The position numbers and the translations under genes were made by a program. The notes under the pieces are model-generated. The model was not told the origin of the DNA, did no database searches, and worked only from the letters and a program-made list of their open reading frames with translations. This document shows, in pieces, positions 1,944 to 24,668 of a DNA stretch of 64,000 nt (position 1 is the first letter of the stretch; every line of letters starts with the position of its first letter). The stretch lies in contig JAHZIX010000045.1 of NCBI GenBank assembly GCA_022601195.1, positions 628,884 to 692,883 of the forward strand. Direction: 5' to 3'. Origin of the DNA: Deltaproteobacteria bacterium (GTDB lineage Bacteria; Acidobacteriota; Thermoanaerobaculia; Multivoradales; JAHZIX01).

Positions 1944-2840
1944 TCAGTCGAAGGCCTTCAAGATCTCCTCCGCCAGCCATCCACCGGACTCCTGAACGAA
2001 ATGACCCGACTCAGCGATCTCCAGGGGGGGCGGGCAGCCCTGAATGACCTTGCGCAGAGCTTGCATGACCGGAGGGCCCAGTACCGGGTCTTCCATGCCG
2101 ATGGCCATGAGGGTGGGGCCCGCCCACTGAGCCGACCACCACCTAGCTGCTCGCCGGGAAAGGGCGGCACCCGGTGCGTCCGGATGGTCCGGAACCAGGT
2201 CTGGAAACCGCCGCACTCCGGCTTTGTAGCGAATGTCCGGAAAGGGTGCATCGTAAGCGGCGAGCTCCCGAGCAGAAAGATCGGGGCAGGATCGTCCCAT
2301 GAGGCGTCCGATGGCCATGTCCGGGTTTTTGGCACTCCAGGCTCGCCAAGCCAAGAAGGCCGGCGGCAAGGCAGTTTCTCCGGTGGCGAGAGAGGTGTTC
2401 ATCACCACCAATCTGGAGTAGCGCTGGGCATCATCCATGGGGATCGTCAAGCCGAGGAGTCCTCCCCAATCCTGAGCCACCAAAGTGATGTTAGAGAGGC
2501 CCAGTCGCTCGACGAAGGTGATCAGCGAGGCACGGTGAAACTCGAAGGTGTAGACGCTTTCATCAGTGGGCTTATCGGAGCGTCCGAAGCCGAAGAAATC
2601 GGGAGCCACCACCCGATGTCCAGCGGCGGTAAAAACCGGCAGCATCTTGCGGTAGAGGTAGCTCCAGGTGGGTTGGCCGTGCAAACAGAGAAACACCGTC
2701 TCGGCATCTCTGGGCCCCTCGTCCAAGTAGTGCATTCGCAGCCCATCGAAACCCGGCAGGTCCTCCAGGTAGTGAGGTTCGAAAGGAAAATCCGGCAGGT
2801 CCGAAAAGAAATTCTCGGGGGTTCTCAAAATCTCATTCAC
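1944..2840 (-). CDS. haloalkane dehalogenase-like alpha/beta hydrolase
   Basis: N-terminal FPFEPHYLE...GLRMHYLDEGP, nucleophile elbow VAQDWGG, 298 aa. GTG start at 2838-2840 overlaps the stop of the upstream giant gene (GTGAATGA). Confidence 0.75.
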   Translation of the reverse strand: MNEILRTPENFFSDLPDFPFEPHYLEDLPGFDGLRMHYLDEGPRDAETVFLCLHGQPTWSYLYRKMLPVFTAAGHRVVAPDFFGFGRSDKPTDESVYTFEFHRASLITFVERLGLSNITLVAQDWGGLLGLTIPMDDAQRYSRLVVMNTSLATGETALPPAFLAWRAWSAKNPDMAIGRLMGRSCPDLSARELAAYDAPFPDIRYKAGVRRFPDLVPDHPDAPGAALSRRAARWWSAQWAGPTLMAIGMEDPVLGPPVMQALRKVIQGCPPPLEIAESGHFVQESGGWLAEEILKAFD

Positions 2841-5800
2841 GAGGAGTCCTTTCGTTGACTGCCGTGGCGGGAAGAGTGGTTCGGAGGTCGATCTTTCGGA
2901 GAGCGCCCACCAGGTCTCTGAGTTGGTCGAGATGTTTCAAGGTGCCATCTAGCTGGTCGCTGAGCAGGCGGTCCTTTTTGGCCTCCGAGCCCTGAACGCG
3001 GCGTCCGAGGCTCCTCACAGCAGGAATGAGTGCCTCTTCGATGGCTCCCACCAAGCGACCCATGAGGTCGTGAACTCCGGGGCCGAGGGTTTGGACGATC
3101 TCTCGGCCTCGAGGCGCCTCGGCGAGGGTGGCCAGTGTCTTGGAGAGGCTTTCCAAATAAGGGGAAAAATCCTGCGCCGGAGCGGCTGCCAGGTTCGTTG
3201 CCAGCCCTGTAGTCGCCGACGGGTCGACGGCGGGGACTCGGTTCTTGAGCTCCGCAGCTGCTCCGGAGAGGACCCGAACGACCTTCTCCATTCCCTTCGA
3301 CAGCGAAGCCAAATGGTGGTCGAGTTTCTGGAGGGCTTCCCCGCCAGCGAGCTCTTCCCCTGTTGAGGATTCTCGAGACAGGGCCAGGCTGGCTTGGATC
3401 TGTTCCAAGATCGGCGTTAAGGTCGCTGCCAGTTCCTCGGTACCCCTATCTTCTGCATCACTCTCTTCCGAACGAGCCGTCTCGCGGGTCGATTCTGCTA
3501 CCTCCTTCAGCTGGGAGCCGATCTCGCCCAAGCGGTCCGACATCAGGCCCAGCTGACCCACCACTCGTGTCGAAGGATCGTCTTCAGCTCCGCCCATGGA
3601 GAGCACGCGGGCAAAGCCCCGCTTGATCTCCGCCCACCGCGCTTGCTCCTCCGGGGTCAGGCGTCCGCGCAACTCCGCTAGCTTGAGGAGGTTGTGCTCC
3701 GCCCCCGTGGTCAGAGTTTGGGCTTCCCCCAAGTAGTGATTGTCGAGAAGGACCTCGAGCTCGTCGTCGTTCATCACCGGCACGATCTTCTCCGCCAACT
3801 TGTTCATGTTGCGGTAGCTGCCCTGGAGTTGAAAGGGAGGCTCGGTGCGAAAAGCCGGATCTTGAGCTGCAGAGAGAATGTACTGGCGATTGACTTCCAG
3901 AAGCACCTGCTGGACGGCTAGGAACTTCCTCAGGACGGCGAGAATCTCCCCCACTTCCGCCGCGGAGTATCCATGGGAAAGTTGATCCGCCTGTATCTGT
4001 TCTCCCTGGGCCATGCGCACCAGCAAGTAGGTATCCTGCGGATCCCGGGTTCCCAGGGGAGCCGTCACCGGGTTGGAGGTGAGAGCATTCTCTAGGTAGC
4101 TGAGGGCGAAAGTCTCCTCCTTGCCTTCCAGAATGTCACCCAGATTGTAGACATCCGCTCGGTTTGCCAACATGTCCGGGACCTGGAACTTATCTCCCGA
4201 TTCCGTGTAGGGGTTGCCGGCCATACAAACAGCGAAGCGCTTTCCCCTCAGGTCATAGGCCTTGGTTTGCCCTTGCCAGACTCCCTCCACCTTACGCTGA
4301 GCGTCGCACAGGGAGATGAACTTCTGTAGCAACTCCGGATGGGTATGCTGAATGTCATCCAAGTAGAGCAACACGTTGTTGCCCATCTCGAAAGAGAGAT
4401 TCATCTTCTCCACCTCGCGCCGGGCAGTCGCATTGGGAGCTTCCGCAGGGTCGAGGGAATGGACGCCGTGCCCAAGGGCCGGGCCGTTGATCTTCATGAA
4501 GACCAACCCCAGGCGATTGGCAACGTACTCCATCAAAGTTGTCTTGCCGTATCCCGGGGGAGAAATGAGCAGCAACAGGCCCATCTGATCGGTTCGCTTG
4601 TCGTCTCCAAGGGCACCCATCTGCTTGGCCAGGTTGTCCCCGACTAGTGGTAGGTAGACCTCGTTCAAAAGACGATTGCGAACGAAGGCGCTCATCACCC
4701 GAGGGCGGTACTCTTCGAGTCGCAATTGTCGGCGGTTCTCTTCCAGCGCTTGGTGTCGGCATTCCTGAAAACGCCGGAAGGCAGGAACTTGCGAGTGGCG
4801 GAAAGCCCCGAGGCGCGCCAGGAATTCATCGAGGCGAAGGGTCATCTTACGCTGAGAGATGCGCCCATGTTGGCCCAGGAGGCCCTCCACTTCGCCCTGT
4901 AGCAGGGCGCTCGAGGGTTCCCGAGACAGGAGGCCTTCGGTGAGAATCAGCGCCACCGCACCATCGACTTCCGCTGCTAGACCCAAGGGGACGTCCTTAG
5001 CCGCTGGCTTAGTCTCGTCGTTGGGACTCTTGGTGGAAGTGCCAGAAACTTGGTGCCTTTGATCCAAATAGGCTTCGATCCAGGCCTTGGCGAGGGAGTA
5101 GCGCTGGGGCAGGTGATCCACCAGCTCGCTCATATCCGCTTGAAACTCTCTCCAAGATCCGGTCTTTTCGAGGTGTACTTCGAAGCTTCGCCGCAGATCC
5201 TGGGCTCCTGCGCTGAGCACGAAAGTAGAGGATTCCTGGCAAATCTCTTCGAAGAGATATTGCCCTGCGGAGCGCTGGTCTTCAGGGTCCAAATGGAAAC
5301 CCAGCTGCTCGGAAAAAGTGCCGATGGCCGTGGCGAGCTCGGAACAGAAACGGACGATCTCCGGACTGTGGGCGAAGGCTCGACGGAGGCGCGCCAGGCT
5401 TTGAGCCCTTCGTTGCCAACGCTTTTTGGCCAGCTCATCTTTGAAACAGGCCCAAAACAGAACCGCGGCAGCTCTCGGTTTCGGCGCAAAGCGGAGAAGC
5501 CCGGCGGTAGCGTAGAGACCGAGGAGCTTGGATAGGATAAGGGTCGCGTCCGCATCGTGGAGGCCTCTTTCATAGCCTTCGTCATAGCGCTCCGCGGAGA
5601 ACCTTCGGACTCGTTCCAAAAGGCTCTCCTGGGACAATGCTGCCTGTTGCAGAACCTGCGGAGACAGCCCTTCGGACTCTTCTTCAGCTGCCGCCAGGAG
5701 GCAAGCCGCCAAATACTCTCCTCGGTAGACCTGGGGGTTCTCAGAGACCAGGTGCTGATCCCACAGTGGCCGCAACTCTTCGAGCTGGGAGTCTTCCAGA

Positions 5801-8550
5801 GGTTGATGGAAGTCCGTGCCCGTGAGGTGAAGCTCTAGATGACCTTCACGGGGAATCAGGGTCAAGTCCAGGTTCTGGGTGTTGACGCTGAAACGATGAC
5901 GCCCCAATTTGAGAACATCTGTGCCCTCTTCGAAGATGTCCTGGCGGTCCCGTAGGGAGCGAACCGCCTCCTGCCGGGCGCCTTTGAGGCGCGCATCTAC
6001 CTCGTCCGCTCGCACGCTGTCGCCCAATTCCCGAAGCCGGGAGGAGAGGTCTCGCAATCGGCTCACCATAGCGTCCGCAGCGAAGTAGCTGTTGAGCTCG
6101 TCACCTTCCGAAAGCGTCGCCGCTCGCCGGGCGATGCCTCCGAGAATGCGCTCCGCTGCTTGCATCAAATGGTTGGCTCGGCGTTGACGTTCGTCCAGCA
6201 GGCGTTGCTTCTTGGCGCTGAAAGCCTCGTAGACGTCTTCCCGCTTGGCTCCCAGCTGCTCCAGGTATTCCTCGAACTCACTGAAGCGACTCTCTAACTC
6301 CTCCAACTGCAGCATGAGCTTCGAAAGTTGCTCGTCACAGGCTTCCGGGGTGTCGCCGAGACTCAGGGCGCCGGCAACGCTCTGGTTGAAGAGTTGAAAC
6401 TGGACCGCGAACTCGGCGACCATTTCATGGGAGAGGAGCTCTTTGCGTCGCGCTTCTTGGAGGGCTCGGCACCGGTTGAGGCCACCGAGAACTTCCGACA
6501 CCCCCTCTAGAATGCCGGTCCGCACGGTGGCGTCGTCGATATCGAGGCCACTTACCACTTCTGCCAGCAGGTCAAACCCGGAGCTAAGGCTGTCGATGGA
6601 TTCTCGAAGCGGTCGGGCCTCGCTGACCTTCTGAACCACCTCTATCTCTTGCTCTAGCTCTTTGAGTCGCCGGTGAAAGGGAGCAAAGGCGTCCTTCTCG
6701 ACCAGGAAAGAAACCGTCGCCTGGCTGACTTGGTCGAACCGATCCGAGACCTGCTCCTCTAGGGAATCGAGGCGCGACGGGTCGGCGTAGCGCAACTCTC
6801 GCAGTGAAATTAGCCTCCCTCTCTGCTGGCGCAACTGGCTCAGGCCTTCCACAAAGGGTTCGATGGCACTCCAATCTTTGGGGCGCATCTGGCCCAATAG
6901 GGTCTCCACCTCGACAGCTGCCTGGTCCACCGCTTCCGTGGCCTGACTGCGGATGGCTTCGACCTTCTCGAATTCATCGACGATCAACTCGGCGGTGGTA
7001 CGTACCTCCTTGAGCTGGTCCAGAGGCTGGCCCACCTCCGGGCTACCGAGCCAGAAGTAGCTGTCGATGACTCGGTTGGCGGAGGCGATGAGATCTTCGT
7101 AGACGAGGCGACTCGCCTGCTGCTCTTCCACCATGCGGCACAGGCTCAGGAGGTCCGAGATTCCCCGAACCAGATCGGCGTTGCCAACCTTCTCTAGATA
7201 GGAACCGGAAGAGGGAGCTGCCGCAGCGTGCTCGGCGCTGGAAAAGGGAGTCTGCCAAACCTGCATGGGGTGGACTCGGGTCGGCTCCTCCGAGAGACAG
7301 CGAAAAATGACCATCTTGCCGTCGTCGAAGAAAGTGAACCCATGGCATTCAACGGGGTTTGACACCTCTTTGCGGATCACGTTGTAGGGCAGCATGACGG
7401 TCCGTCCCTGCTCCCGGTGGTGAAAGAGGTACAACACATCTTCCCCATTGGGGGAGCGCAGGGCGTGTTTGAACTCCAGCTGCGCCACTTTCGCGTCGAA
7501 GGTTCGAGTCTCGCCGCTCTGAAGGTAAAAGCCTCCGGGAAAAATGATGCCGTGGTCCTCCGGCAGCTGCACACAGGCCTGACCGATGGCATCGATGCGC
7601 TGAACCTGCTTGGTGCGGGTATTAAAGACCAGATAGCGCCAGGTTTCCTCCCGGTAGGGCTTCACCTTGAGGAGGATTAGAACCCCCACCTGGGCGTAGT
7701 GAATCTCTGCATCGTCGAGACTCTGGTCGGCATCGTCCACCGGTTCCCGGTAGATTCCCAAACCGTCTTCTGTGTTGTTCTCGATCTTGATGGTGAGATC
7801 GCCGCCTACGGTCTCTACAAAAACCTCATCGAGAATCGTCACGTGGGGGTGCCGGCCGGACACAAAGTGATCCCGGGTGGTTGGAGTCCATTCGAAGTCG
7901 TGAGAAGGTGGGAACTGGTGATCCCGCTCTCCCCGATTGTCGATGTAAGTGATTCGACCGTCCGGTGCAATGGCCCAGCGAAAGACCTTGATGTCACCGA
8001 GGGTCGAACCAGCCTGAAAGACCGCTAGCAAACGATCCTCGACCCGGCGCAGCTGGAGCAACCGAGCCGACTTGTAGTACTGGTAGAGTTCCTCGAATTC
8101 CCGCAGGAAGGTCGGGTCGGCAAGAAAATCGGGTTGAGCGCCATCCTTCAGAGGGGTGAGAGAAAAGCCTTCCTGGGTCGCTTCGAAGGTGTGCAGGCTG
8201 AAGACGTCCCTGACCGTGGTCTGGTGGCGAAGACCTATGAAGACGTTGTAGCCAAACAGCAGCCGATCGCCCACCGCGGCGATGTCTCGGGGCACACAAT
8301 TGTTCTGCGTGCGGATCCGTTCCGAACCGACCACGGACATCTCGGTGCTGCCAAACAGCTCCAAGCGCTCTGTGTTGAGGCGATTCGCCGCAGTCTTGAG
8401 GTTTCCCGCTTGCTCCAGCAGCCGATCGCGGACAACTTCATAGGTGCCCTGCTCCAGGGTCGAGGTTTCGCTCATAGGCTCCCCCATCGCCCGCCGGGCT
8501 CCAAGAAGTTTTTCGGCCAGGAAGTACCTCTCCTCCCGAACCCGGGCCAT
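2833..8550 (-). CDS. giant (1905 aa) protein with a single MoxR/AAA_5-type AAA+ ATPase module; function unknown
   Basis: Walker A LISPPGYGKTT (+ strand ~4541-4570), Walker B VLLYLDDIQH (~4345-4380), AAA_5-like AGNPYTESGDKFQVPDMLANRADVY (~4150-4230). Beta-rich N-terminal region, ~800 aa predicted coiled coil (E/L/R/Q-rich heptads), alpha-helical C-terminus. GGGGGAG SD before ATG 8550. Confidence 0.6.
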   Translation of the reverse strand: MARVREERYFLAEKLLGARRAMGEPMSETSTLEQGTYEVVRDRLLEQAGNLKTAANRLNTERLELFGSTEMSVVGSERIRTQNNCVPRDIAAVGDRLLFGYNVFIGLRHQTTVRDVFSLHTFEATQEGFSLTPLKDGAQPDFLADPTFLREFEELYQYYKSARLLQLRRVEDRLLAVFQAGSTLGDIKVFRWAIAPDGRITYIDNRGERDHQFPPSHDFEWTPTTRDHFVSGRHPHVTILDEVFVETVGGDLTIKIENNTEDGLGIYREPVDDADQSLDDAEIHYAQVGVLILLKVKPYREETWRYLVFNTRTKQVQRIDAIGQACVQLPEDHGIIFPGGFYLQSGETRTFDAKVAQLEFKHALRSPNGEDVLYLFHHREQGRTVMLPYNVIRKEVSNPVECHGFTFFDDGKMVIFRCLSEEPTRVHPMQVWQTPFSSAEHAAAAPSSGSYLEKVGNADLVRGISDLLSLCRMVEEQQASRLVYEDLIASANRVIDSYFWLGSPEVGQPLDQLKEVRTTAELIVDEFEKVEAIRSQATEAVDQAAVEVETLLGQMRPKDWSAIEPFVEGLSQLRQQRGRLISLRELRYADPSRLDSLEEQVSDRFDQVSQATVSFLVEKDAFAPFHRRLKELEQEIEVVQKVSEARPLRESIDSLSSGFDLLAEVVSGLDIDDATVRTGILEGVSEVLGGLNRCRALQEARRKELLSHEMVAEFAVQFQLFNQSVAGALSLGDTPEACDEQLSKLMLQLEELESRFSEFEEYLEQLGAKREDVYEAFSAKKQRLLDERQRRANHLMQAAERILGGIARRAATLSEGDELNSYFAADAMVSRLRDLSSRLRELGDSVRADEVDARLKGARQEAVRSLRDRQDIFEEGTDVLKLGRHRFSVNTQNLDLTLIPREGHLELHLTGTDFHQPLEDSQLEELRPLWDQHLVSENPQVYRGEYLAACLLAAAEEESEGLSPQVLQQAALSQESLLERVRRFSAERYDEGYERGLHDADATLILSKLLGLYATAGLLRFAPKPRAAAVLFWACFKDELAKKRWQRRAQSLARLRRAFAHSPEIVRFCSELATAIGTFSEQLGFHLDPEDQRSAGQYLFEEICQESSTFVLSAGAQDLRRSFEVHLEKTGSWREFQADMSELVDHLPQRYSLAKAWIEAYLDQRHQVSGTSTKSPNDETKPAAKDVPLGLAAEVDGAVALILTEGLLSREPSSALLQGEVEGLLGQHGRISQRKMTLRLDEFLARLGAFRHSQVPAFRRFQECRHQALEENRRQLRLEEYRPRVMSAFVRNRLLNEVYLPLVGDNLAKQMGALGDDKRTDQMGLLLLISPPGYGKTTLMEYVANRLGLVFMKINGPALGHGVHSLDPAEAPNATARREVEKMNLSFEMGNNVLLYLDDIQHTHPELLQKFISLCDAQRKVEGVWQGQTKAYDLRGKRFAVCMAGNPYTESGDKFQVPDMLANRADVYNLGDILEGKEETFALSYLENALTSNPVTAPLGTRDPQDTYLLVRMAQGEQIQADQLSHGYSAAEVGEILAVLRKFLAVQQVLLEVNRQYILSAAQDPAFRTEPPFQLQGSYRNMNKLAEKIVPVMNDDELEVLLDNHYLGEAQTLTTGAEHNLLKLAELRGRLTPEEQARWAEIKRGFARVLSMGGAEDDPSTRVVGQLGLMSDRLGEIGSQLKEVAESTRETARSEESDAEDRGTEELAATLTPILEQIQASLALSRESSTGEELAGGEALQKLDHHLASLSKGMEKVVRVLSGAAAELKNRVPAVDPSATTGLATNLAAAPAQDFSPYLESLSKTLATLAEAPRGREIVQTLGPGVHDLMGRLVGAIEEALIPAVRSLGRRVQGSEAKKDRLLSDQLDGTLKHLDQLRDLVGALRKIDLRTTLPATAVNERTPRE

Positions 8551-8609
8551 CCCAACCGGGCTCGGAAAGAGGTTCGGATTCCGGAAGAGCGGGATTTTCT
8601 AGAGAGGAA

Positions 8610-8695: not shown

Positions 8696-10741
8696 TCACG
8701 CCTTGAGATCCTCAATCCCCATTTCCCGGGCGACTTCCACGAGCCGGCTCAACTTAGCCTTGCCGTCACCTTCGAGGCCCGAGCCGAGACGTGCCAGGAG
8801 CCCGGCCAGGGTCAAGTCCTTGAGATCTCCGGAAGTCAAGGCCGGTCGGGAAAGAACCTCCTTGATATCTTCCGGGAGGCTGGCATCGCCTTCCAGGTAG
8901 TCCTTGAACAGATTCTGAGTCTGCTCACTGCGTCCCACAAAACCATCCACAGCCTTGCCCATGGAGATGGCGCCCACCAATTTGTCGAGGAAAGCGCCGT
9001 CGCCGCCGACGATATCGATGCGGGCGTTGCTCAAAGCCTCGGCGAGTACCTTGGCTTGAGCCTCGGCGACCTCTCGGCGAGCTTGGATACCTTCCAAACC
9101 GAGTACTCGTTCGTTCTCCAGCTGCAAGCGGTATTCCTCGTGACCTCGGCCTGCCTCGTCCAGAGCCTCCATGGCCGCGGCTTTTGCCGACAAGCCTTGG
9201 GCCTCGGCGCTGAGCCTCGCCTCGATCGCTTCCGCTTCCGCGGTTCCTTTTTGGCGAACCACGGCGGCTTCCGCGGTGCCGTATTTTTCGGTCGCCTCGG
9301 CGTCGACCTCTTTGATCCGCGCCTCGGCCAAGCCCACCTTCTCGATGGCGATGGCGTCCGCCTCTTTGACGGTGACCTGAGCCAACCCGGAAGCGGCTTC
9401 TTCCGCTTTGACGCCTTCCGCCAAACGAATTTTTGCCTGCGCCTCCTTGTCGGCGATCTCCAAGTCCGCCTGGGCCAAGGTCAGTTGTTCGCGGGCCTTA
9501 TGTTCCGCGGCAGCTTCCGCAGCTTCTGCAGCCTTGATGTCTTTGACCAATAGCTCCTGGGCCTCGCCTTCGGCCGTAATGACCGCGGCCTGCTTGGTGC
9601 GCTCAGCATCCTCGACCACTCGCAGTGTCTTGATGCTCTCCTCTTCTTCCGCCACGGTCTTGTCCACCACGACTCGTTCGCGGACCACCATGGCGATTTC
9701 CTTGCGTTCCACCTCGAGCTCTTTCTCCTTGGAGATACGAGACAGCTCCACTTCTCTCTCTCGGACGATGGCTTCCAGGGCCCGGTCTTTTTCCACCCGC
9801 TCCGCCTCTACGCTGACCACTCGCTCCCGGTTTTTCTGGGCAACTTCTACTTGTCGCAGCTTATTTTCCTCAGCGATGGCCAGCTCTTCATCGGTCCTGA
9901 TGCGAGCGGATTCGGAGCGCAGGCTTTCTTCCGCCTGGATCTTCAGAATCTCGGCCTGCTCTCGAGCCTTGACGGTTTCGATTTCCCGTTCTTGTTTGGC
10001 CTCGGCGTCCGCTTGCTGTCGCTCGAGCTCGAGGATCGCCTCCTGGGCTTCGACATCCTGTTTCTTGATCTTCTTGCGCTCATCGTTCTGAAACTCGTTG
10101 GTGCGAACGTGCTCCACGGCGGTCAGCTCGGTGATTTTGCGAATGCCCTGGGCGTCGAGGATATTGTCCGGATCCAGGGACGATAGGGGGGTTTGCTCCA
10201 GGTAGTCGATGGCGGCGTCTTCCAACACGTAGCCATTGAGGTCCCGGCCGATCACCCCGATGATCTGGTCGCGGAACTCTTCTCGCTTGGTGTAGAGGTC
10301 GACGAAATCTAACTGCTTACCGACGGTTTTCAAGGCCTCCGAAAACTTGGCGCTGAAGAGCTCTTCCAGAGTCTTCTGGTCCGAGGCCCGGGCACAGCCA
10401 ATGGCCTGAGCCACCTTGATGACGTCTTCGCGAGTCTTGTTGACCCGAACAAAGAAGGTCACCTTGATGTCTCCACGGATATTGTCCTGGCAGATCAATC
10501 CATCTTTTCCGCGTCGGTCGATCTCGATGGTCTTGACGGAAATGTCCATCGCTTCCGCTTTGTGGATCACCGGGATCACCAAGTCGCCGGTGAAAGTCAC
10601 CTTCGGCTCAGCCCCTAATTTATTGACAATGAGTGCTCTACCCTGCTCCACCTTGCGGTAGAGCCGGGCTACCAGCAAGCCCGCTCCGAGTAGAAAGAAA
10701 ATGAGGATGAGACCAACGACTACGGGAAAAATTAGATCCAT
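8696..10741 (-). CDS. flotillin (SPFH/band-7 domain protein, FloT/YqiK-like)
   Basis: N-terminal membrane hairpin (MDLIFPVVVGLILIFFLLGAGLLVA), an SPFH domain, then a long EA/EAE-repeat coiled coil typical of bacterial flotillins. AAGGAGGG SD upstream. Confidence 0.85.
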   Translation of the reverse strand: MDLIFPVVVGLILIFFLLGAGLLVARLYRKVEQGRALIVNKLGAEPKVTFTGDLVIPVIHKAEAMDISVKTIEIDRRGKDGLICQDNIRGDIKVTFFVRVNKTREDVIKVAQAIGCARASDQKTLEELFSAKFSEALKTVGKQLDFVDLYTKREEFRDQIIGVIGRDLNGYVLEDAAIDYLEQTPLSSLDPDNILDAQGIRKITELTAVEHVRTNEFQNDERKKIKKQDVEAQEAILELERQQADAEAKQEREIETVKAREQAEILKIQAEESLRSESARIRTDEELAIAEENKLRQVEVAQKNRERVVSVEAERVEKDRALEAIVREREVELSRISKEKELEVERKEIAMVVRERVVVDKTVAEEEESIKTLRVVEDAERTKQAAVITAEGEAQELLVKDIKAAEAAEAAAEHKAREQLTLAQADLEIADKEAQAKIRLAEGVKAEEAASGLAQVTVKEADAIAIEKVGLAEARIKEVDAEATEKYGTAEAAVVRQKGTAEAEAIEARLSAEAQGLSAKAAAMEALDEAGRGHEEYRLQLENERVLGLEGIQARREVAEAQAKVLAEALSNARIDIVGGDGAFLDKLVGAISMGKAVDGFVGRSEQTQNLFKDYLEGDASLPEDIKEVLSRPALTSGDLKDLTLAGLLARLGSGLEGDGKAKLSRLVEVAREMGIEDLKA

Positions 10742-10823: not shown

Positions 10824-11519
10824 CTAAGTCAAAGCTTCGGCTACAGGGGTGACCAGGTACGTCTCTTTGTGGGCGTCGTACTTGAAAATCAGAGCTTTGG
10901 AGCCGCGGGTCAGAACGTTGGCTTCCAAACAACGAATGGGAACGAGCAGGCCGGCGCCGCCATCTTCGATCTCTGCCTGGCCGAACTCCAGGTCGACCCG
11001 CAAGGTGGTCACCGTACAGAGCTCGCCGACAAAGGCTTGGCGTTTGGGGGCTAGGTGAGAGACCAGCATTTTTCGAAGCGGGCGGGCACTCAAGGCGGCG
11101 GCACCGAGCCCCAATCCCAAAGCACCAGCTCCTACGAGGATCGCGGCCCAAGTCGCTTTCGACCCGCCCTCGATCGCGTCCATTCCGAGGTAGCTAGCCA
11201 TCCAGCCTACGAAGGTGAGAGTCGTTAGGGAGATCGTCAAAGGCACTCCCGAGAGGCCAAGAAGCTGTAGCAGGCCACCGGAAGTCGCCGAATTACCATC
11301 CGCTCCATCCCCACCCCCTTCACCGACGCCTTCCCCAATACCGTCCGCCGCTTCGAGAGCAGCTTCGGAACCTCCCTCCAGGAGGCCGTCCAGATCCAGT
11401 ATGTCGACGTCCAAGATTCCGGCAATGACAAACAGCCAATACACCAGCAGAACGCCTAAGGGAACAGTGAATAACACCGTCGGAAAGGCCAGGATTGCGT
11501 CTAGAAATTCGGTCATCAT
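10824..11519 (-). CDS. NfeD/YqiJ-like membrane protein (flotillin-associated, OB-fold C-terminus)
   Basis: N-terminus MMTEFLDAILAFPTVLFTVPLGVLLVYWLFV resembles YqiJ. It has multiple TM segments, a Gly/Asp-rich linker and a C-terminal beta-rich region. AAGGAA SD before ATGATG at 11519; the track ORF extends to 11552. Sits 82 nt upstream of flotillin, as in yqiJ-yqiK. Confidence 0.55.
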   Translation of the reverse strand: MMTEFLDAILAFPTVLFTVPLGVLLVYWLFVIAGILDVDILDLDGLLEGGSEAALEAADGIGEGVGEGGGDGADGNSATSGGLLQLLGLSGVPLTISLTTLTFVGWMASYLGMDAIEGGSKATWAAILVGAGALGLGLGAAALSARPLRKMLVSHLAPKRQAFVGELCTVTTLRVDLEFGQAEIEDGGAGLLVPIRCLEANVLTRGSKALIFKYDAHKETYLVTPVAEALT

Positions 11520-12328: not shown

Positions 12329-14395
12329 CTAGTGACTTTCGCGAATAGGGGGCGCGAGGAGGTCTTCGATGCCGATAGAGGGCTGGTTTTCCAGCCTCAC
12401 CGGTTCCAGCTCCTTGAAGGGGTCTTCCGGTAGTTTTCCGGTTTCTTCCAGGGCCGTAAGAACGTGGTGACGGTTGAAGGGGCGGAACTTGAAGCACTTC
12501 ATCTTGGCCACGGCCTTGATGTCAGCTTCACGGCGTTCCAGGTCGTCGAAATCCCGCAGTTTCGGTGCGCCGGCCCCGGTGTAGACCGGATCCGCGACGG
12601 TGATTCCGGTCAGGAAGCCGGAAAGGGCAGCCGGTAGCCCTGGGGTAGCCGGGTCGACATGGACGAATACCGTATCCGTCTCGCGAGCATGGCAACCGTT
12701 ACAGGCGGCGACTCCAACCTGGCTTCGCAGGTCCGAGTGGGCCATGTTGTTGGCCCCGTCTAGGGGAAGCGGCCCGTTCCAATGGAAGGGTGGTGGCGGG
12801 GCACCAGGAACCTTGGGATTGGCGGCTAGGAAGTTCAGGTTGTTGAAAATGAGCGGCACCGGCCGGGGGCCGAAGAGAACGTAGTTCGAGAAATCCACCG
12901 TGTTGTTGAAGCCCAGGTCCGGCGTGTCCGCAGCGGTGGTTTCATGAAGCGTATCCCAGGGGATTTGCATCAGACGGAACTCTCGTAGCTCCCATGGGAA
13001 CTCCTGGCCGATCTCGTTGGTGCGCAGCTGGCCGAGGGCGCTGCCATTGGGCCTGGTGGGGTTGGCGTTGCGACGCACGAAGGTATTGGTGAGTCGGTTG
13101 AGAGTCGCATTGTAGCTTGCCGAAGGGAAGGGCAGGTTGGCGAGGCGAACCCACGCTTTGGCCCAGTCCCGGACATCTTCGCACTCACATTTCGGAACCC
13201 GATACTCAAAGATCACCGAGAAGGCGAGGCCTCGGCAGCCACCACCCAGGTTGACGAGAGTTGGTTGGAAGAAAGGGCTGGCGTCGTAGCTCGGAGGCAG
13301 AACCACGCCGAATACGAAGCGGGCTTCACCAGCGTCGAGGAATTTACCGGTGCTGCTACCCAGGTAACCACCGCTGGTTCCCGTGGTGGAGCGCAGGTCG
13401 ACTCTGGAGACGATGGCCAGCAGCCGGAAGGGTGCGATGGAAAGGTCCAAGTCACCGCCGCCACTGGCAGCCCGCCAGTCAGCGATGAGAGAAGCCATGG
13501 CTGCTCGGGCAGGAACGTTGAAGCTATTGACGTTTTGGGCGGTGCCCCACTGCTTCAGCCACTCTTCGGTCATGAAACTGGGGTCGATACCGGTCGCCGG
13601 TTCGTTAGCCATTTCTCTCATCAGGTGACCAAACGTCCACTGCCCCATGGGGGCTCCGGTGCTAGTGCAGGGATCCCAGGTGCGAGCTGGATCCGTCACC
13701 ACACTGACATCGGTGATCATCAGGGAGCGGTCTTGGAAGATATTGGTGCCAGGAGTGAAGGCGTTGGCGACAACGGAGTCGAGGTGCTCACCTTGCTGGC
13801 CCTGGCCAGTTGCGGCGCTCAGGGGGTTGCCCGCCGCCGGAGCCGGCTCTTCGGTGGCCAGCAGGTTCGATGTGAGGGCTCGGCCAAAAGCGACCCGCTC
13901 TCCGGCGAGAAATTTGTTGGCATCGAAGGGAGTCGTCGCCTTGGTACCGACCCGGACCCGACCATCGAAAACCGGGGCCAGTTTGGCTCCTCGGTCGGAT
14001 TCACCGCGGTCATTCTCTCCACGCTCAATGAGCTCGGAGTCGTCAATAGAGATTCGGCCGGTGAAGACTCCATCCCCGTGGCGGTCATCATCCCCCTTGC
14101 CATCGTCGCGGAGCAGCAAGCTCTGGGAGTCGTCACCTACGATAAGAAAGGTCTTTTCACCGGTCACTTTGGCTAGAGCTGTGACCCCTTCATTGTCCAG
14201 AGTGACGAAGATCCGAGCGTTGCCCTGGCCTCCTTCATCGTCAGCTTTCTGAATCGAAACCGACTCCGGTGGTGGTACGAAGGTGGTGAGCTCCCTCGCC
14301 AAGCTCGGCATGGCCACCAAGCTGGTCAGGCTTAGGGCCAGAATCCACGGGATCCCTCTCTGTTTCTTAGGTTTTGCCACGTTTGTTCCCTCCAT
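12329..14395 (-). CDS. secreted hypothetical protein (688 aa) with a single CXXCH motif
   Basis: Signal-peptide-like N-terminus (ILALSLTSLVAMPSLA). No recognisable catalytic domain. C-terminal CNGCH (possible c-type heme site). Confidence 0.5.
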   Translation of the reverse strand: MEGTNVAKPKKQRGIPWILALSLTSLVAMPSLARELTTFVPPPESVSIQKADDEGGQGNARIFVTLDNEGVTALAKVTGEKTFLIVGDDSQSLLLRDDGKGDDDRHGDGVFTGRISIDDSELIERGENDRGESDRGAKLAPVFDGRVRVGTKATTPFDANKFLAGERVAFGRALTSNLLATEEPAPAAGNPLSAATGQGQQGEHLDSVVANAFTPGTNIFQDRSLMITDVSVVTDPARTWDPCTSTGAPMGQWTFGHLMREMANEPATGIDPSFMTEEWLKQWGTAQNVNSFNVPARAAMASLIADWRAASGGGDLDLSIAPFRLLAIVSRVDLRSTTGTSGGYLGSSTGKFLDAGEARFVFGVVLPPSYDASPFFQPTLVNLGGGCRGLAFSVIFEYRVPKCECEDVRDWAKAWVRLANLPFPSASYNATLNRLTNTFVRRNANPTRPNGSALGQLRTNEIGQEFPWELREFRLMQIPWDTLHETTAADTPDLGFNNTVDFSNYVLFGPRPVPLIFNNLNFLAANPKVPGAPPPPFHWNGPLPLDGANNMAHSDLRSQVGVAACNGCHARETDTVFVHVDPATPGLPAALSGFLTGITVADPVYTGAGAPKLRDFDDLERREADIKAVAKMKCFKFRPFNRHHVLTALEETGKLPEDPFKELEPVRLENQPSIGIEDLLAPPIRESH

Positions 14396-17388: not shown

Positions 17389-20300
17389 ATGTCTCAAGCC
17401 CCTCAAATACCTTTGAACCTTCCGGCAGTTCTGATCTTTCTCTGGTCTGTCAATGAGGAAGAAGTCCCCCTGAAGGCGCAGAGTCTGAGTGTCGAAATTT
17501 TCCCCGGAGTCCACCGATTGGGACCCCGCTTGATCGCTCTACTGCCCATCGGCGGTGACGCAGCTGAGGTGGATCTTGGGATTCATCTTGCCATCAAGAT
17601 TCAACAGGAGCTGTCGGTCGGCACCCTCGTTCTTCCTGGAGAAGTTCAGCATAGTCTCGAGGGAGTTTCCTCGATCGCTGATCCGTTGCTGCAGGATCTG
17701 GAGCGCCAGCCACCCTCGGTAGATCCCGAGTCTGTCTATTTGACCGGCTACGCGGCGGGCCGTTTGGGTACAGGTTGGACTCTGGAATCCGCGGGTGAAT
17801 ACGGTGGCAAGCTGGTCTCCAAGGTAACGCTGTTACGGGTTGCGGGCCAGGTCGCGTCGCGGGAGCCCTGGCACAATCTGCAACTCCTGGGCAAAGTTAC
17901 CGACTATGTATCTCGGTCCGAATTGGAGCAGGCTCTCCTGAGCCAGGGGTCAAGTCCGGTATTGCGGGTGCAAGGTCCCATTGGTTGCGGCAAATCGCGA
18001 CTGGTGTGGAACACCTTGGGGCCGGGAGCTCGCCCGTTGCATGGTTTGCCAAGCCCTCCCCCTACCAGTGTCTGGCTCAATCTCCAGCCGCCTCGCTACG
18101 AGAGTCGACCATTGAGCTGGGAGCTCCTGAGAGCACTTTGCCAACTATTTGTTGACGAGTCCAAGGCGGACAGCCTGGACGACGCTGCGCAACGGCTTGG
18201 TTTGGAGGATGCTGCTGGTTGGGTACTGGGAGACTCGCCTCCGCCCACATCGAAGGAACTCGGGGAGATCGTGCTTTCGGCCTTTGCTGCCTGTGCCGGT
18301 GCCATCTCTAGGGGATTGCGCATCGTCTTCGACAACCTTCACTGTGCGCCAGCGGAAAGCCTAGAGTTTCTAGACTTCATCCTTCGTCACCGGGGGCCGG
18401 TCCGGGAGCTTCGCCTAGTCCTGATCAATCGCCTTGGAAATCCCTGGCCGGAAGCGGCTTCGAGTGCTCCCATGGTGCCGGTTTCTTCCATGACGGCCGA
18501 GCACTTCCTGAGTTTGGCAAAAAGTCTATTCGAAGGGCTTTCTCTCCCCAAGGGCGTCGAAGATCGCTTGCTCGAAGCCACCGGTGGATTGCCCTTAGCG
18601 CTGGAAGAAGGGCTGGTCAATCTCATTCACCGCAGACTCCTACGTCGTATCTATGGAAGTTTCTTCTTCAACGGCGGCAAGGATACGGACTATGCCCCTT
18701 CGGCTCGTTGGACTCAGCTCGTCGAGGCCGAGGCTCGTCGCCTAGGGGGCTCGGACGCGATGCGCCTACTGGCCCTTAGCGGTTTCGCTCTACCTCCTGG
18801 TGAGCTGGAGTCCGCAGCTTCTCTACTGGCGGTAAAAGTGAGTCCGAAATGGGAGAACCCCTATCTAGAGGCCGGTTGGGTACACCGTGCGTCCTCCCCC
18901 TGGGGAATGGGCCTCTATCCCGTTAGCGCGGCCATCCGGATGCCCCTTGCCGTTTCCGTAGAACCGAACGCAGCGAAAATCGCGCGTCGAACCATCGGCG
19001 AGATACTCGCCCATTCCAGTGACAGCCCGCAGGCTCGGTGGCAGGCCTACAACCTACTATCGGGCACGGAGGCGGCGGTACCTCCGATTCTGGAGCTGGC
19101 TCGTAGTCACGGTGTTGGCCCCGGCTCCGAAGAGCTGCTGGGAGGGATCGCCAAAGAGCTCGAAGCGCACCGCTCCCGGGGAGGAGATGCAGGGGTCGAG
19201 CTACAGCTTCTCTGGGTCCTACTCCCGATGGCCCGGCGTCTCAATCGCTTGGAGGATTTCGAGCAAGATCTCGAGCGGGCTCTGGAGATCAGTGCCGAGA
19301 GTCCGAAGAAACACCTGGCCTTTGCTAGCCTCAAAACCGAGGTCGACTTGCAGAAGGGGCGGTTAGCTCAAGGGGAGAGGACTCTTCGAAGTGCCTTGGA
19401 GCTGGTGGTAGAGGAAGATTCGGGTCGCCAGGCCCTCCTTCTTCTGCAGCTCGGCAGGCTGCAGATCCGCCAGGGCCGTTACGGCGAAGCGAGAGCTCTC
19501 ATGGAGCAACTCTTGCCAGTGCTCGAAAAACGCAAAGCGGTGGCGCAGATCGCATCTTGCCGGTTCCACCTGGGCAATATCGCTCTTCACGAGGACCGCC
19601 TAGAGGAGGCCTTCCAGCTGCATCGGGAAGCTCTCGAAGACCGGCGAAGAGAGGACAATTTCAAGGCTCTGGGGAGCTCTCTTTCAGCCCTTGGAGCGGT
19701 CACGACCGCGATGGGCAGCTACTCGAAAGCTCTGGGTTTCTACCGCAAAGCTCGGGAAGTTCTCGAGGAGCACGGCGAGCCTGGAGAAGTGAGCTTCGCT
19801 CTTCTCGGGAGTGGCCGGGTGCTGCAGCGCCTGGGCGACTACACAGGAGCTTCCCAGCCCCTGCGTCGAGCGTTGGCCCTGCGCAGTGCCGGGTCCGATC
19901 CTGTCGGCGAAGCCATTTCCCGCATGTTCCTGGCCTTCAATTGCCTCGAATTGGGTCAGTTGGATGAGGCTCTGACAGAAACTCGCCGGGCTAGCTTCAA
20001 TTTGAGGCTAGGCCCCGAAGTTTCGCAGCTCGGAGACGCCGAGCAGCTCCTGGGTCGTATCCGCATTCGAATGCGACAACTTCAGCAGGGGCAGGAGCAC
20101 CTAGAGGCGGCGCACGAAATTCATCGGCGTCAACGAGATGCAAGCCGGGCACTCGTGGATCTCAGCTGGCAGCTCAAGGTGGCTCTTCTGGAGGAGAACG
20201 TCGAAGAGATTCTTCGCCTCTACCGAAGGGTGGCCGCTGAGCGCCAAGATCTCAAGCCCTCCGAGCGCGAGGAGACGGTCGACTTTCTCCTTTTTGAAGC

Positions 20301-20490
20301 GGCGGATTGGCTACGGGACAAGGCCATGGCCATCAACGGAGATCCGGTCATCCATCTCCGGCAGGCTTACCAGGAGCTTTCCCGCAAGGCGATGTTATTG
20401 AACACGGAATTACGCCATCGGTTTCTCTTCCAGGTCCCCGCCAACGCGGCCATCGTTCAAGCGGCAACAGAGAGAAATCTAACTCTGTAG
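17389..20490 (+). CDS. STAND-type signalling NTPase with a degenerate cyclase-like N-terminal region and C-terminal TPR repeats
   Basis: P-loop VQGPIGCGKSRLVWN. The N-terminal ~150 aa are weakly class-III-cyclase-like (IGGDAAEV...LSVGTLVLPGEV). The C-terminal third is TPR-like (LGNIALHEDRLEEAFQLHREALE, LGSGRVLQRLGDYTGA). Confidence 0.5.
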   Translation: MSQAPQIPLNLPAVLIFLWSVNEEEVPLKAQSLSVEIFPGVHRLGPRLIALLPIGGDAAEVDLGIHLAIKIQQELSVGTLVLPGEVQHSLEGVSSIADPLLQDLERQPPSVDPESVYLTGYAAGRLGTGWTLESAGEYGGKLVSKVTLLRVAGQVASREPWHNLQLLGKVTDYVSRSELEQALLSQGSSPVLRVQGPIGCGKSRLVWNTLGPGARPLHGLPSPPPTSVWLNLQPPRYESRPLSWELLRALCQLFVDESKADSLDDAAQRLGLEDAAGWVLGDSPPPTSKELGEIVLSAFAACAGAISRGLRIVFDNLHCAPAESLEFLDFILRHRGPVRELRLVLINRLGNPWPEAASSAPMVPVSSMTAEHFLSLAKSLFEGLSLPKGVEDRLLEATGGLPLALEEGLVNLIHRRLLRRIYGSFFFNGGKDTDYAPSARWTQLVEAEARRLGGSDAMRLLALSGFALPPGELESAASLLAVKVSPKWENPYLEAGWVHRASSPWGMGLYPVSAAIRMPLAVSVEPNAAKIARRTIGEILAHSSDSPQARWQAYNLLSGTEAAVPPILELARSHGVGPGSEELLGGIAKELEAHRSRGGDAGVELQLLWVLLPMARRLNRLEDFEQDLERALEISAESPKKHLAFASLKTEVDLQKGRLAQGERTLRSALELVVEEDSGRQALLLLQLGRLQIRQGRYGEARALMEQLLPVLEKRKAVAQIASCRFHLGNIALHEDRLEEAFQLHREALEDRRREDNFKALGSSLSALGAVTTAMGSYSKALGFYRKAREVLEEHGEPGEVSFALLGSGRVLQRLGDYTGASQPLRRALALRSAGSDPVGEAISRMFLAFNCLELGQLDEALTETRRASFNLRLGPEVSQLGDAEQLLGRIRIRMRQLQQGQEHLEAAHEIHRRQRDASRALVDLSWQLKVALLEENVEEILRLYRRVAAERQDLKPSEREETVDFLLFEAADWLRDKAMAINGDPVIHLRQAYQELSRKAMLLNTELRHRFLFQVPANAAIVQAATERNLTL

Positions 20491-21501: not shown

Positions 21502-22158
21502 CTATCTCGCCAGATAGGCCTCTAGCTGTTGCCGGTCTTGGGCTGTCAGGAGGTCGTCGGAAAGTAGGAAATTCTCCCCTTCCTCCGGTAGTGGTACGGC
21601 GGCTTCCGCCAGGGAACGTTCCAACTCGGAGCAGCCAAACCCCAAGGGAATGAGCATGGAGAAGCGCTTGCAGGTTTCGACGAGAGAGGTGGCTAGGCGG
21701 CTTCGAATTTTCAGTTTGATCTCCGCTGGTAACTCGACGACCGTAACCTCGTAACCCTTGTCAACTCTCTGCAATCGGATCTGTCCTTCGAGAAATAGGG
21801 TCTGGTGCGGGAGTTGGACGTCGTCTTCTAAGTCCGTTGAGACTCCCGAGATAATCAGATCTGCCTCCAACTGGCCTTCACCGGCCACCTCGAGGGTCAA
21901 AAAGGCGCGGTGTACGCCTCCATCCAAGGGTTGGAGGTTCAACTGATGGCTCATGAGCTCGACTTCGTTGGAGGGGGAGCGCAACTGGATCGTCACCAGG
22001 CCCCTTCGGACGGGAGCGATGTCCGGGTTGGGGTTGTTGTAGACGCCATTGATGAGATCGAAGTGAAAATCTTCTCCCTCCTCGGCGGCGACTACCGGCC
22101 AGCCGAGGAGAATGAAAAAGAAGGTGGCGGCGGCCACCGATAGGACGGTCCACTTCAT
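21502..22158 (-). CDS. secreted hypothetical protein
   Basis: Signal peptide MKWTVLSVAAATFFFILLGWPVVAAEE. Its start overlaps the stop of the VWA gene. Confidence 0.45.
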   Translation of the reverse strand: MKWTVLSVAAATFFFILLGWPVVAAEEGEDFHFDLINGVYNNPNPDIAPVRRGLVTIQLRSPSNEVELMSHQLNLQPLDGGVHRAFLTLEVAGEGQLEADLIISGVSTDLEDDVQLPHQTLFLEGQIRLQRVDKGYEVTVVELPAEIKLKIRSRLATSLVETCKRFSMLIPLGFGCSELERSLAEAAVPLPEEGENFLLSDDLLTAQDRQQLEAYLAR

Positions 22159-24668
22159 TCGTAATACCCTCTCGTAGTGCGGGCCTTGAGGCCTCTTTTC
22201 TTCGTCTTGACCTCCACCGTGCGGTAAGTGCCAGGCTCCGCCTGATTCTTGGAAGCATAGGCGATCAAATACTGGCTGCGCAGTTCTGCTTCGATCGCTT
22301 CGTATACTCCTGCCAGCTCGTCGGCTTTCTTGATCAAGAAGGACTGCCCTCCGGTCTCGGCCGCGAGGCTTTTCAATTTATCGCGAATTCCCAGATCCAG
22401 CCCGCTGACTCCCAGACCGATGGTGTAGATCGCCACTCCGGAACGTCGAGCGTACTCCAGAGCGTCCCGAAACGAGATATGACTCGCTGTGTCGTCCCCA
22501 TCGGAAAGAACCACCAGGGCACGTCTTCCTCGCACTCCCCGAAAGTAGTAGAGGCTGTGAATGACCGCATCGTGAAGGGAGGTAAAGCCGGCAGCTAGAA
22601 GGCCCTCCAGGCTTCTCGACACCGCCTCGGAGTCGTTGGTGGGCGGCATGAGTAGTACCGGACGATCGGCGAAGCTGATGGCGAAGGCTTTGTCTCGACG
22701 GGTGAGGATGTTATCCACGAACCCGATGGCCGCCTGTTGCGCCTCGTAGATGGAATTTGCCATGGAGCCCGAGGTATCTATGGTGAGGCCAACGGTGAGA
22801 GGGAGATTTTCTACCAGCTCGAATTTTGAGATCACCTGCTTTTTTCCCTCTTCCAAGACTTCGAAGTCTTCCATGGCAAGCCCTGGCACCAGGCGACCCT
22901 CCCGATTGGTGACCGTGGTAAACAGCTCCACCAAGCTGACGTCGACTTCCTCCAGATAGTCAGGGCTGTTGAGGAACCGGACGTCCTCCGCACGGCTTTC
23001 GTCATCCAAGTAGGCAACGACGGTGAGGTAGGAGAGCTCGCTGACATCCGGAACGGTGATGGTCGATTCCCAAGGAGGAGACTCCAGAGTCGTGATCAAA
23101 GCATCGTTGACCAGGAACTCGACTCTCTCGACTCGTCTCTCCTCCGGCACGACGACCTCTGCTCGGGCAGTGATGGTGCCCGAGGAGGTGACTCCTCGCT
23201 TGGGCTCTAGGATTCTCGTTCGTAGAGCGCCCCTGGGCTGATTGAGAACCACCTCGTCGGTTAGCACCAGCTCACCGGCTGCGTCGTAGCCTTCGATCCG
23301 AATGACCTGTTCCGTGGGGAATTTGGTCAGCCTGACTTCCGCGGTAAACGGAGGTCGAGTACGGGTGAGTTGGACTTTGTCGTCGACCACGAAAACCACT
23401 TTGGTGATTCTCTCCCCCGCCACCAACGCTTCCGCTCTCCAAAGGCCCACCACAACATCGCTCTCCGGCGGCACCAAGACCAAGGCATCGGCTCCCGCCA
23501 GGCGCTCCATAGAGATCTGTTGGCCAACCGCCGCCACAACGTCATCGGCTCCCAGCTCGCTGCTCAAGTCCTCCGCTTCGGCGGGCACCGTAAAGCTGCG
23601 GTTGAGCCGAGCCTCGGTTCCCGCCACTTCGTCGGAGACCTTGAGCCGCAGTAGGAAGGAGCGATCCGGACGAAGGGCCCGTTCGACCACCAAGGCTACC
23701 GGTGCTGGTTCCTCCGGCGGGTTCAAGGTAAAGCGCACCCGAAAGGTGTCGAAAACCTTGCCATCCTGTTCCACGGACCCCTCCACCGACAGATCCAGCT
23801 CGTCTTCGTCCCCTTCCGTGGCGACTTCAAGGTTGGCGCTGTCCGGCAGGTTGACCGTCACCCGAGTCAACATACGTGGCCCTTTCAGCTTCGGGTATTG
23901 GATCTTGACGTCACCGATCTCCAGTATTCTCGGGACCTTCGGTTCCTCCTCGCTCAGAGCTTTGCTCGCCCAGGCACTGAGATCCGCTGGTGGGTCCAGG
24001 AATCGGGTCATGTCTCGGTCCAGAGGGCGATCTTCCATAAAGCCCGTAAGGCCCCTCACGCCGGTAACTTTGTCGAGAAATTTGGCTCTCTTGCAGAGTT
24101 GGTAGTCGAATCGTTTTCCAGTGATGTACTTCCGAAGCTCTTCCCATTGGTCGAGGAAGTACTCCATCTCCTGGGTGTAGAGAACTCGCTTCGAATCGGT
24201 AGGGACCCACAGGCGAAAGGGCTCATCCGGTCCTGGTTGGTAGATCACCAGGTAGGCAGGATTCTCCTCCGTACCGTAGTTCCATAGCTCCATGGGTCTG
24301 TAGACCAGGCCGCATTCGATCACTTCTCGCGATGGCGGTGGTCCCTGCAAGAACAACAACTGACTGCGGATCTCGCTGGGAGGCAAGTCGTTCGAGGTCA
24401 CGAGTAGTTGCCGTCGGCGAATGGCCTCCTTGAGGCCGCCGTCAGTGGCGGGAATCCGCTCCAAGAAGGAGTCGATGAAGAGCTCTCTTCCGACCTCGTC
24501 GAGACTAGCGAAGGCCTCCCGCTCTTCAGGATCGAGAAGAGATGCTGGGCCGTCCTGGTAGAAAGATCTCTGGGCTTCGGGCCACAGCACCGGATCTTCG
24601 GCGGCTACGAGCGGCGCTAGGGCCAGTAGCACCCAGAAAACCGCAGATATTCTGAAGGGCTGGTACAT
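22155..24668 (-). CDS. secreted von Willebrand factor A domain protein (acidobacterial VWFA-related type)
   Basis: Signal peptide. C-terminal VWA with MIDAS-like TIDTSGSM...SDGDDT...TIGLG. Confidence 0.65.
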   Translation of the reverse strand: MYQPFRISAVFWVLLALAPLVAAEDPVLWPEAQRSFYQDGPASLLDPEEREAFASLDEVGRELFIDSFLERIPATDGGLKEAIRRRQLLVTSNDLPPSEIRSQLLFLQGPPPSREVIECGLVYRPMELWNYGTEENPAYLVIYQPGPDEPFRLWVPTDSKRVLYTQEMEYFLDQWEELRKYITGKRFDYQLCKRAKFLDKVTGVRGLTGFMEDRPLDRDMTRFLDPPADLSAWASKALSEEEPKVPRILEIGDVKIQYPKLKGPRMLTRVTVNLPDSANLEVATEGDEDELDLSVEGSVEQDGKVFDTFRVRFTLNPPEEPAPVALVVERALRPDRSFLLRLKVSDEVAGTEARLNRSFTVPAEAEDLSSELGADDVVAAVGQQISMERLAGADALVLVPPESDVVVGLWRAEALVAGERITKVVFVVDDKVQLTRTRPPFTAEVRLTKFPTEQVIRIEGYDAAGELVLTDEVVLNQPRGALRTRILEPKRGVTSSGTITARAEVVVPEERRVERVEFLVNDALITTLESPPWESTITVPDVSELSYLTVVAYLDDESRAEDVRFLNSPDYLEEVDVSLVELFTTVTNREGRLVPGLAMEDFEVLEEGKKQVISKFELVENLPLTVGLTIDTSGSMANSIYEAQQAAIGFVDNILTRRDKAFAISFADRPVLLMPPTNDSEAVSRSLEGLLAAGFTSLHDAVIHSLYYFRGVRGRRALVVLSDGDDTASHISFRDALEYARRSGVAIYTIGLGVSGLDLGIRDKLKSLAAETGGQSFLIKKADELAGVYEAIEAELRSQYLIAYASKNQAEPGTYRTVEVKTKKRGLKARTTRGYYE

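Follow-up and report, generated by a model that had tools for sequence, protein, structure and literature searches.

A giant DUF3686-DUF7902-AAA+ ATPase encoded beside a flotillin-like gene: a candidate remodeller of bacterial membrane scaffolds

The function of bacterial flotillins is still argued over. The closest described systems are operons that join Band-7/flotillin and YqiJ/YuaF proteins. A comparative genomics study (section 19 and Table S3) describes a 'Band-7+coiled-coil+flotillin -> beta-propeller+coiled-coil+AAA-ATPase' operon with a YqiJ/YuaF protein, proposes roles for such operons in sub-membrane dynamics, and reports that abbreviated operons lacking PspA are widespread (Ravi et al., mSystems 2024, PMC11237479). 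In Pseudomonas aeruginosa, reverse transcription PCR showed that PA14_16140-16200 form one operon, the 'biofilm-associated cluster' bacABCDEF, in which the two genes after bacD are named bacE and bacF; in a bacA mutant, BacB-F are up together, PA14_16190 by 8.9-fold (PMC10948618). The locus considered here lies in a 64,000-nt stretch of contig JAHZIX010000045.1 from Deltaproteobacteria bacterium, referred to as the window. It encodes a giant ATPase (2833..8550, minus strand) that is almost certainly a member of the DUF3686-DUF7902-AAA+ family, placed last in a conserved cassette of YqiJ/YuaF-like, flotillin-like, and ATPase genes. It is a further member of a catalogued, computationally described family and not a new kind of system. 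The reading favoured here, to which a probability of roughly 0.45 is assigned, is that the protein forms a ring and serves as an ATP-driven remodeller of a flotillin/PspA membrane scaffold.

The open reading frame (ORF) spans 1905 amino acids (aa) from its first ATG, as the earlier note on this DNA had claimed, and the National Center for Biotechnology Information (NCBI) holds the same protein as an 1884-aa 'DNA repair ATPase' that begins at M22 (coordinate 8487). Which ATG serves as the start is uncertain: codons 1-21, counted from the one at 8550, are unconserved in homologues, and a GGAG lies ~11-14 nt upstream of M22. The frame is far more than a chance ORF, since a search at E <= 1e-5 gives 6,776 database matches. 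The 120 best homologues have the same domain list, and an exhaustive search with residues 22-520 returned 769 clusters at 50% identity, whose full-length members measure 1590-2036 aa and reach down to 32% identity. In Pfam scans, residues 51-499 match DUF3686 (PF12458, "ATPase involved in DNA repair"; E 1e-213, 710 bits, cut-off 25), and residues 620-704 match DUF7902 (E 4e-28, 97.7 bits, cut-off 26). The view that the N-terminal region holds no motif that can be placed is therefore out of date. No transmembrane segment is predicted (maximum KD19 1.44), and the protein is presumably cytoplasmic and soluble. A promoter and terminator scan of window positions 1-12500 found sites no more often than in shuffles.

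The functional reading draws first on gene order. Related loci were collected (80 from GTDB species genomes, where at least 585 species match); linkage was counted in the 73 loci with enough upstream DNA, and neighbours were clustered over 83 loci. In 70 of the 73, the gene immediately upstream is flotillin-like and has the same orientation (median gap ~140 nt), and in 61 of 68 a YqiJ-like gene precedes the flotillin-like gene. The clustered neighbours comprise flotillin-like, YqiJ-like, PspA, DUF2170, PLD, and rhomboid genes, and the YqiJ/YuaF-like, flotillin-like, and giant trio also occurs in two unrelated metagenomic contigs. Hosts include Myxococcus, Cystobacter, Nannocystis, Nocardiopsis, Nonomuraea, Streptomyces, Micromonospora, Pseudomonas, Lysobacter, Providencia, Xenorhabdus, and Acidobacteriota. 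This operon context had been missed in the earlier interpretation. Given the near-constant position of its gene after a flotillin-like gene, the giant probably acts on the flotillin scaffold and not on DNA. At least 585 species representatives of at least four phyla, with P. aeruginosa, Myxococcus, and many actinomycetes among them, encode such a large, strongly conserved ATPase beside one subtype of flotillin. This suggests that the membrane biology of flotillin and PspA includes a step driven by energy.

The P. aeruginosa homologue, a 1746-aa 'DNA repair ATPase' from a cluster of 3,222 sequences, has the same DUF3686, DUF7902, and AAA architecture and is 51.7% identical to the window giant over 1642 aa. 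In that locus (L084), the order is DUF2170, PspA, a 213-aa transmembrane protein, a 688-aa SPFH protein, the giant, PLD, YaeQ, RecJ, and LasB. The last two genes are recJ (PA3725) and lasB (PA3724). From these numbers, and because the published sizes of PA3729 (76 kDa) and PA3730 (23 kDa) fit (PMC2587700), the P. aeruginosa giant would be PA3728. The orthologue is thus probably BacE (PA3728 / PA14_16190), as judged from gene order in L084 and not from a printed locus tag. Like the window giant, BacE directly follows a flotillin-like protein, BacD (52.8% identity to its window counterpart), and a YqiJ-like protein, BacC (30%). In contrast to P. aeruginosa, where BacA (DUF2170, CesT-like) and BacB (PspA) are encoded upstream and BacF (PLD) downstream, no PspA and no DUF2170 or PLD of the BacA/BacF type was found within the 64 kb, and a non-conserved alpha/beta hydrolase gene lies downstream of the giant. 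The Band-7/flotillin-YqiJ/YuaF operons of PMC11237479 share an identical operon logic; the window corresponds to the 'abbreviated operon' without CesT/Tir-PspA, and gammaproteobacterial relatives reproduce the full operon, PLD included. In the latter loci, DUF2170 and PspA_IM30 genes are added upstream and rhomboid and/or PLDc_2 genes downstream. PA3731 (PspA-like) mutants are reported to be defective in biofilm formation, swarming, rhamnolipid production, and virulence, and PA3728 to be recurrently mutated in cystic fibrosis isolates. bacE/PA3728 is therefore a genetically tractable orthologue in an operon tied to biofilm formation, swarming, and virulence.

The database name implies something else, namely a DNA repair ATPase of the coiled-coil SMC/RecN/SbcC-like type. 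This is very improbable. It draws on the Pfam and NCBI name only, and on the Exo_endo_phos gene and xseA that lie within 10 kb of the giant in the window. However, SMC, RecN, and SbcC have an ABC head split by a long coiled coil, whereas the giant carries one contiguous AAA+ module; no SMC or ABC family match was obtained with Pfam or NCBIfam, and Pfam scans detected no DNA-binding domain. Across the 83 loci, the DNA-related neighbours are unconserved, whereas the membrane genes are conserved. A functional link to Exo_endo_phos, xseA, or the alpha/beta hydrolase was accordingly rejected, these neighbours being unconserved in related loci. A literature search found no paper that mentions DUF3686 or PF12458. 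The public name, which has spread over thousands of genomes, is unsupported and likely misleading.

The AAA+ module was examined in AlphaFold2 models of two pieces, residues 22-520 and 500-1660, built from alignments of diverse relatives. The predicted local distance difference test (pLDDT) and predicted template modelling (pTM) scores were 92.4 and 0.90 for the first piece and 85.5 and 0.65 for the second. All parts of the ATPase discussed here and below lie on the minus strand. No other part of the chain is as conserved as the alpha/beta core at residues 1290-1470 (4141..4683; Pfam, AlphaFold2, and alignment). It holds Walker A LISPPGYGKTT at residues 1328-1338 (4537..4569; K1336), in which SPPGYGKT is invariant, and Walker B LLYLDDIQH at residues 1394-1402 (4345..4371), in which D1398, D1399, Q1401, and H1402 are invariant. 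A pre-sensor-1 beta hairpin (KVEGVW / QTKAYD; residues 1420-1433, 4252..4293) is predicted by AlphaFold2 only, its strands 1420-1425 and 1428-1433 lying directly before beta-4. The segment AGNPYTESGDKFQVPDMLANRADVY at residues 1444-1468 includes the end of beta-4, GNPY with sensor-1 N1446, and PDMLANR with the candidate arginine finger R1464 (4147..4221; AlphaFold2 and alignment). A helical lid follows at residues 1478-1651 (3598..4119; AlphaFold2 and alignment), with a 33-residue helix at 1530-1562 and an invariant QGSYR at 1576-1580 that supplies a candidate sensor-2, R1580. Conservation was assessed in 42 relatives with identity down to 32%; the Walker A, Walker B, and 1444-1468 motifs, which agree with those read earlier from the DNA, are invariant in all, and N1446, R1464, and R1580 are strictly conserved. 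K1336, D1398/D1399, N1446, R1464, and R1580, together with the domain boundaries, are handles for experiments.

The Walker A to Walker B spacing of 60 residues corresponds to one AAA+ domain. No second AAA core appears in either AlphaFold2 model or, by Pfam, in residues 1560-1905, which bears out the earlier claim of a single module with one P-loop and one alpha/beta core. Unlike dynein and midasin, which have six concatenated AAA modules, the giant has one. Its class could not be assigned from sequence alone: phmmer and a 42-sequence family profile, run against all PDB sequences, matched only a ~35-residue Walker A stretch (NVL, Rix7, RuvB, and p97, all at E 1e-4 or weaker), and the NCBIfam matches were confined to fragments of RuvB and Cdc48 below threshold. 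Pfam AAA (PF00004) covers residues 1326-1403 with profile positions 1-69 of 131 only, and AAA_5 (PF07728) covers residues 1326-1449 with positions 2-125 of 139; both are barely above cut-off. In the modelled fold, the closest relatives are MoxR, dynein, and midasin modules, with CbbQ and NorQ as the best structural matches. Membership of the classical AAA clade finds no match, since there is no full-length PF00004 hit with a second region of homology, and p97, Vps4, and FtsH are not the closest folds. With only one AAA core in the chain, a single module of the MoxR/dynein type is supported at the level of the predicted fold. The earlier class assignment stands to that extent, but the helix-2 insert, the VWA partner, and the small size of MoxR proteins were not found. 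Region 1356-1373 is modelled as a short helix and a conserved loop without strands. The Walker B motif DD-I-Q-H departs from the usual hhhhDE and resembles the 'DEaqhl' of AAA_22/TniB-type switch ATPases; AAA_22 itself scores 26.2 bits on the giant, below its cut-off of 27.

The structural kinship raises the question of whether the giant is a MoxR-type maturation chaperone for a specific client, as in CbbQ/CbbO and NorQ/NorD, with the flotillin as a membrane platform only. In addition to the matches to CbbQ and NorQ, some sources label relatives 'MoxR-like ATPase'. However, MoxR proteins of the AAA_5 type (CbbQ, NorQ, RavA) have ~250-500 aa and are paired with VWA adaptors, whereas the giant has 1905 aa, an architecture of another kind, a Walker B DD, no predicted helix-2 hairpin, and a linkage to an SPFH scaffold. 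No VWA cluster is found among the conserved neighbours in the 83 loci, nor is there a conserved candidate client enzyme. A role as a maturation chaperone is thus quite unlikely. As a separate observation, the sole VWA gene in the window (VWA and Big_7, 837 aa, 22155..24668, minus strand) lies ~14 kb from the ATPase.

In the proposed mechanism, the AAA+ module would oligomerise into a ring, like its closest structural relatives, and would spend ATP, on the cytoplasmic side of the inner membrane, to assemble, disassemble, or otherwise remodel or reposition the flotillin-like scaffold. Where PspA is encoded in the same operon, the ESCRT-III-like PspA polymer may also be remodelled. The beta-rich N-terminal head would be the partner-binding end, and the helical and small globular domains, ~750 residues in all, would form a spacer or lever between the head and the AAA+ module. 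The whole system may serve membrane maintenance or the envelope-stress response. A functional analogy can be drawn with HflK/C-FtsH and Vps4-ESCRT-III, in which an AAA+ machine is paired with a membrane-shaping scaffold; the scaffold is an SPFH cage in HflK/C, and the extended operons encode a member of the PspA/ESCRT-III superfamily. The analogy is of function only: FtsH is a membrane-anchored protease and Vps4 is a classical-clade AAA with an MIT domain, and only the AAA+ fold is shared with the giant. A more specific version is put forward tentatively. The giant could be a dedicated flotillin motor whose ring binds, by way of the head or the conserved C-terminal element, to the flotillin dome in the cytoplasm and opens, disassembles, or repositions the dome, together with PspA polymers where these are present. 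If so, it would be the bacterial equivalent of Vps4/ESCRT-III or of FtsH/HflKC, and flotillin microdomains would have an active turnover machinery.

Several points weigh against the remodeller. Gene linkage shows joint working and not who acts on whom. The literature search found no experiment on any family member, BacE included, and no interaction data; the ATPase goes unmentioned in a study of SPFH proteins from P. aeruginosa. With DD in place of DE in its Walker B, the giant could be a slow switch and not a motor. The sequence after beta-2 (GPALGHGVHS) shows no evident aromatic pore-loop motif, and this speaks against a simple threading unfoldase. The last two points also favour the main alternative, in which the giant is an ATP-gated structural tether or scaffold that uses nucleotide to switch its own assembly on the flotillin platform and exerts little force, since the invariant DD followed by QH recalls the switch-like AAA_22/TniB-type ATPases. 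The strict conservation of N1446, R1464, and R1580 argues the other way, as does the fact that the closest folds are those of working motors and remodellers. A tether is accordingly considered unlikely, although it is the strongest of the competing explanations. The earlier description of a 'force-generating or remodelling machine' is partly supported: remodelling is favoured, with the tether or switch as its main rival.

The P. aeruginosa expression data bear on a further alternative, a membrane-based module for defence or response to antagonism, phage or interbacterial, in which the ATPase would be sensor or executor and PLD an effector in some lineages. PA3728-PA3732 are up-regulated in phage-infected P. 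aeruginosa (PMC12041424), and a PLD gene follows the ATPase in many gammaproteobacteria, its product weakly resembling the defence PLD DrmC (E 4e-9). However, phage-induced PspA is a generic envelope-stress response, and in P. aeruginosa, represented by the 3,222-sequence cluster, and in many phyla the locus belongs to the stable chromosomal core, which is not an island-type distribution. Against PADLOC models, the giant gives matches at the Walker A level only (IetA, E 5.5e-4 over 29 residues), and its N-terminal and middle domains and its cassette partners give none, so that no core protein matches beyond Walker A noise. A role in defence is improbable.

Outside the ATPase module, the chain is long and composite. 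The N-terminal domain, DUF3686 at residues 51-499 (7054..8400; Pfam and AlphaFold2), is modelled as ~29 beta strands (72-433) between a long N-terminal helix (28-66) and a set of C-terminal helices (439-519), which form a bundle with the first helix. It can be called weakly propeller-like at best, and the model is distant from all solved structures. The earlier note had recognised a beta-rich N-terminal domain, and its three beta-rich peptides lie at residues 200-213, 372-391, and 405-418, but the domain is larger than it stated. A long-helix region follows at residues 509-871 (5938..7026; AlphaFold2 and heptad script), with 11 helices of 10-58 residues each and breaks between them, and contains DUF7902 (6439..6693). 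Then come a five-strand beta mini-domain at residues 879-917 (5800..5916), a globular all-alpha domain of short helices at residues 921-1170 (5041..5790), and a disordered, variable linker at residues 1171-1188 (4987..5040; pLDDT < 50, 35% gaps), which is also the most indel-rich spot. The pre-AAA element at residues 1210-1276 (4723..4923) has three strands and then a 37-residue helix. The beta mini-domain, the all-alpha domain, and the pre-AAA element are predicted in the AlphaFold2 model. Because the model shows breaks and other domains, the '~800-aa coiled coil' proposed for this part of the chain is unsupported. Our own crude heptad script agrees, with 103 of 791 residues in 500-1290 above the 99th percentile of shuffles.

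Behind the lid, conservation per 10-residue block falls in a variable spacer at residues 1681-1790 (3181..3510), where identity is at most 0.26 and gaps reach 82%, and recovers in a moderately conserved C-terminal element with some heptad signal at residues 1791-1890 (2881..3180). The 'helical tail' seen earlier thus corresponds to the helical lid at 1478-1651, but not to residues 1681-1790, which form a poorly conserved, indel-rich spacer. Non-catalytic regions of such length, and a C-terminal element conserved beyond a variable spacer, are what a tether would also show. In the 120 homologues, conservation peaks in the AAA core (above 0.8 identity) and at residues 200-350 of the N-terminal domain (~0.77). 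A separate feature of the all-alpha domain, which matches no Pfam family, is the strongly conserved motif G-Y-x-R-G-(L/V)-H-D-x-D-A at residues 994-1004 (5539..5571), with G996, H998, and D1001 invariant; it could be a metal-binding, catalytic, or interface site.

The flotillin-like partner (681 aa, 8696..10741, minus strand) has an N-terminal hydrophobic anchor at residues 4-27, an SPFH/Band_7 domain at 30-172, an E/A-rich helical region at 210-560, and a conserved C-terminal region. Scanned whole, it has no Pfam or NCBIfam match, and a PDB profile search returned nothing; the first 210 residues alone match Band_7 with E 6e-13 (49.6 bits, cut-off 23.6). The Pfam Flot C-terminal domain was not detected. 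The homologue at positions 4785-6851 of L084 likewise has no whole-protein match, and SPFH is well above cut-off on its ~200 N-terminal residues. The long E/A-rich region appears to suppress the SPFH match in whole-protein scans, and for that reason public genomes probably under-annotate this flotillin-like subtype. In L001 (5322-5816), a contig from TARA Oceans, a 164-aa Band_7-only ORF lies immediately before the flotillin-like gene and is 59% identical to the flotillin-like N-terminal region; it is apparently the product of a partial tandem duplication of SPFH.

The first cassette gene (10824..11516, minus strand; 230 aa from M13) encodes a membrane protein with a C-terminal beta domain. 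Its label as YqiJ/YuaF-like was not confirmed by hidden Markov model or PDB sequence searches: there is no Pfam match, and YqiJ_N matches weakly on two of seven orthologues (best E 0.035). The architecture agrees with the YqiJ/YuaF naming used in PMC11237479. Downstream of the giant, a rhomboid intramembrane protease gene (~188 aa) is present in nine gammaproteobacterial loci (L055, L056, L058, L064, L065, L070, L074, L077, and L080), often before PLD, and in L036 a rhomboid homologue lies upstream on the opposite strand. The passages on this operon in PMC11237479 do not mention a rhomboid neighbour.

In the window, the alpha/beta hydrolase gene (298 aa, 1944..2840, minus strand) extends 8 nt into the giant's ORF, across its stop codon, an arrangement that suggests co-translation. 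A hydrolase of this kind occurs near the giant in one of the 83 related loci, on the opposite strand there. Just upstream of the cassette, a secreted-looking 688-aa ORF (12329..14395, minus strand) matches no Pfam family, its sole weak match being 'choice-of-anchor X' (E 0.004). Two further genes of the window are unrelated to the giant ATPase: one encodes a 1033-aa MalT-like STAND protein with AAA_16 and TPR (17389..20490, plus strand), and the other an Ada/AlkA-type fusion of Ada_Zn_binding, HTH_18, and HhH-GPD (30900..32465, minus strand).

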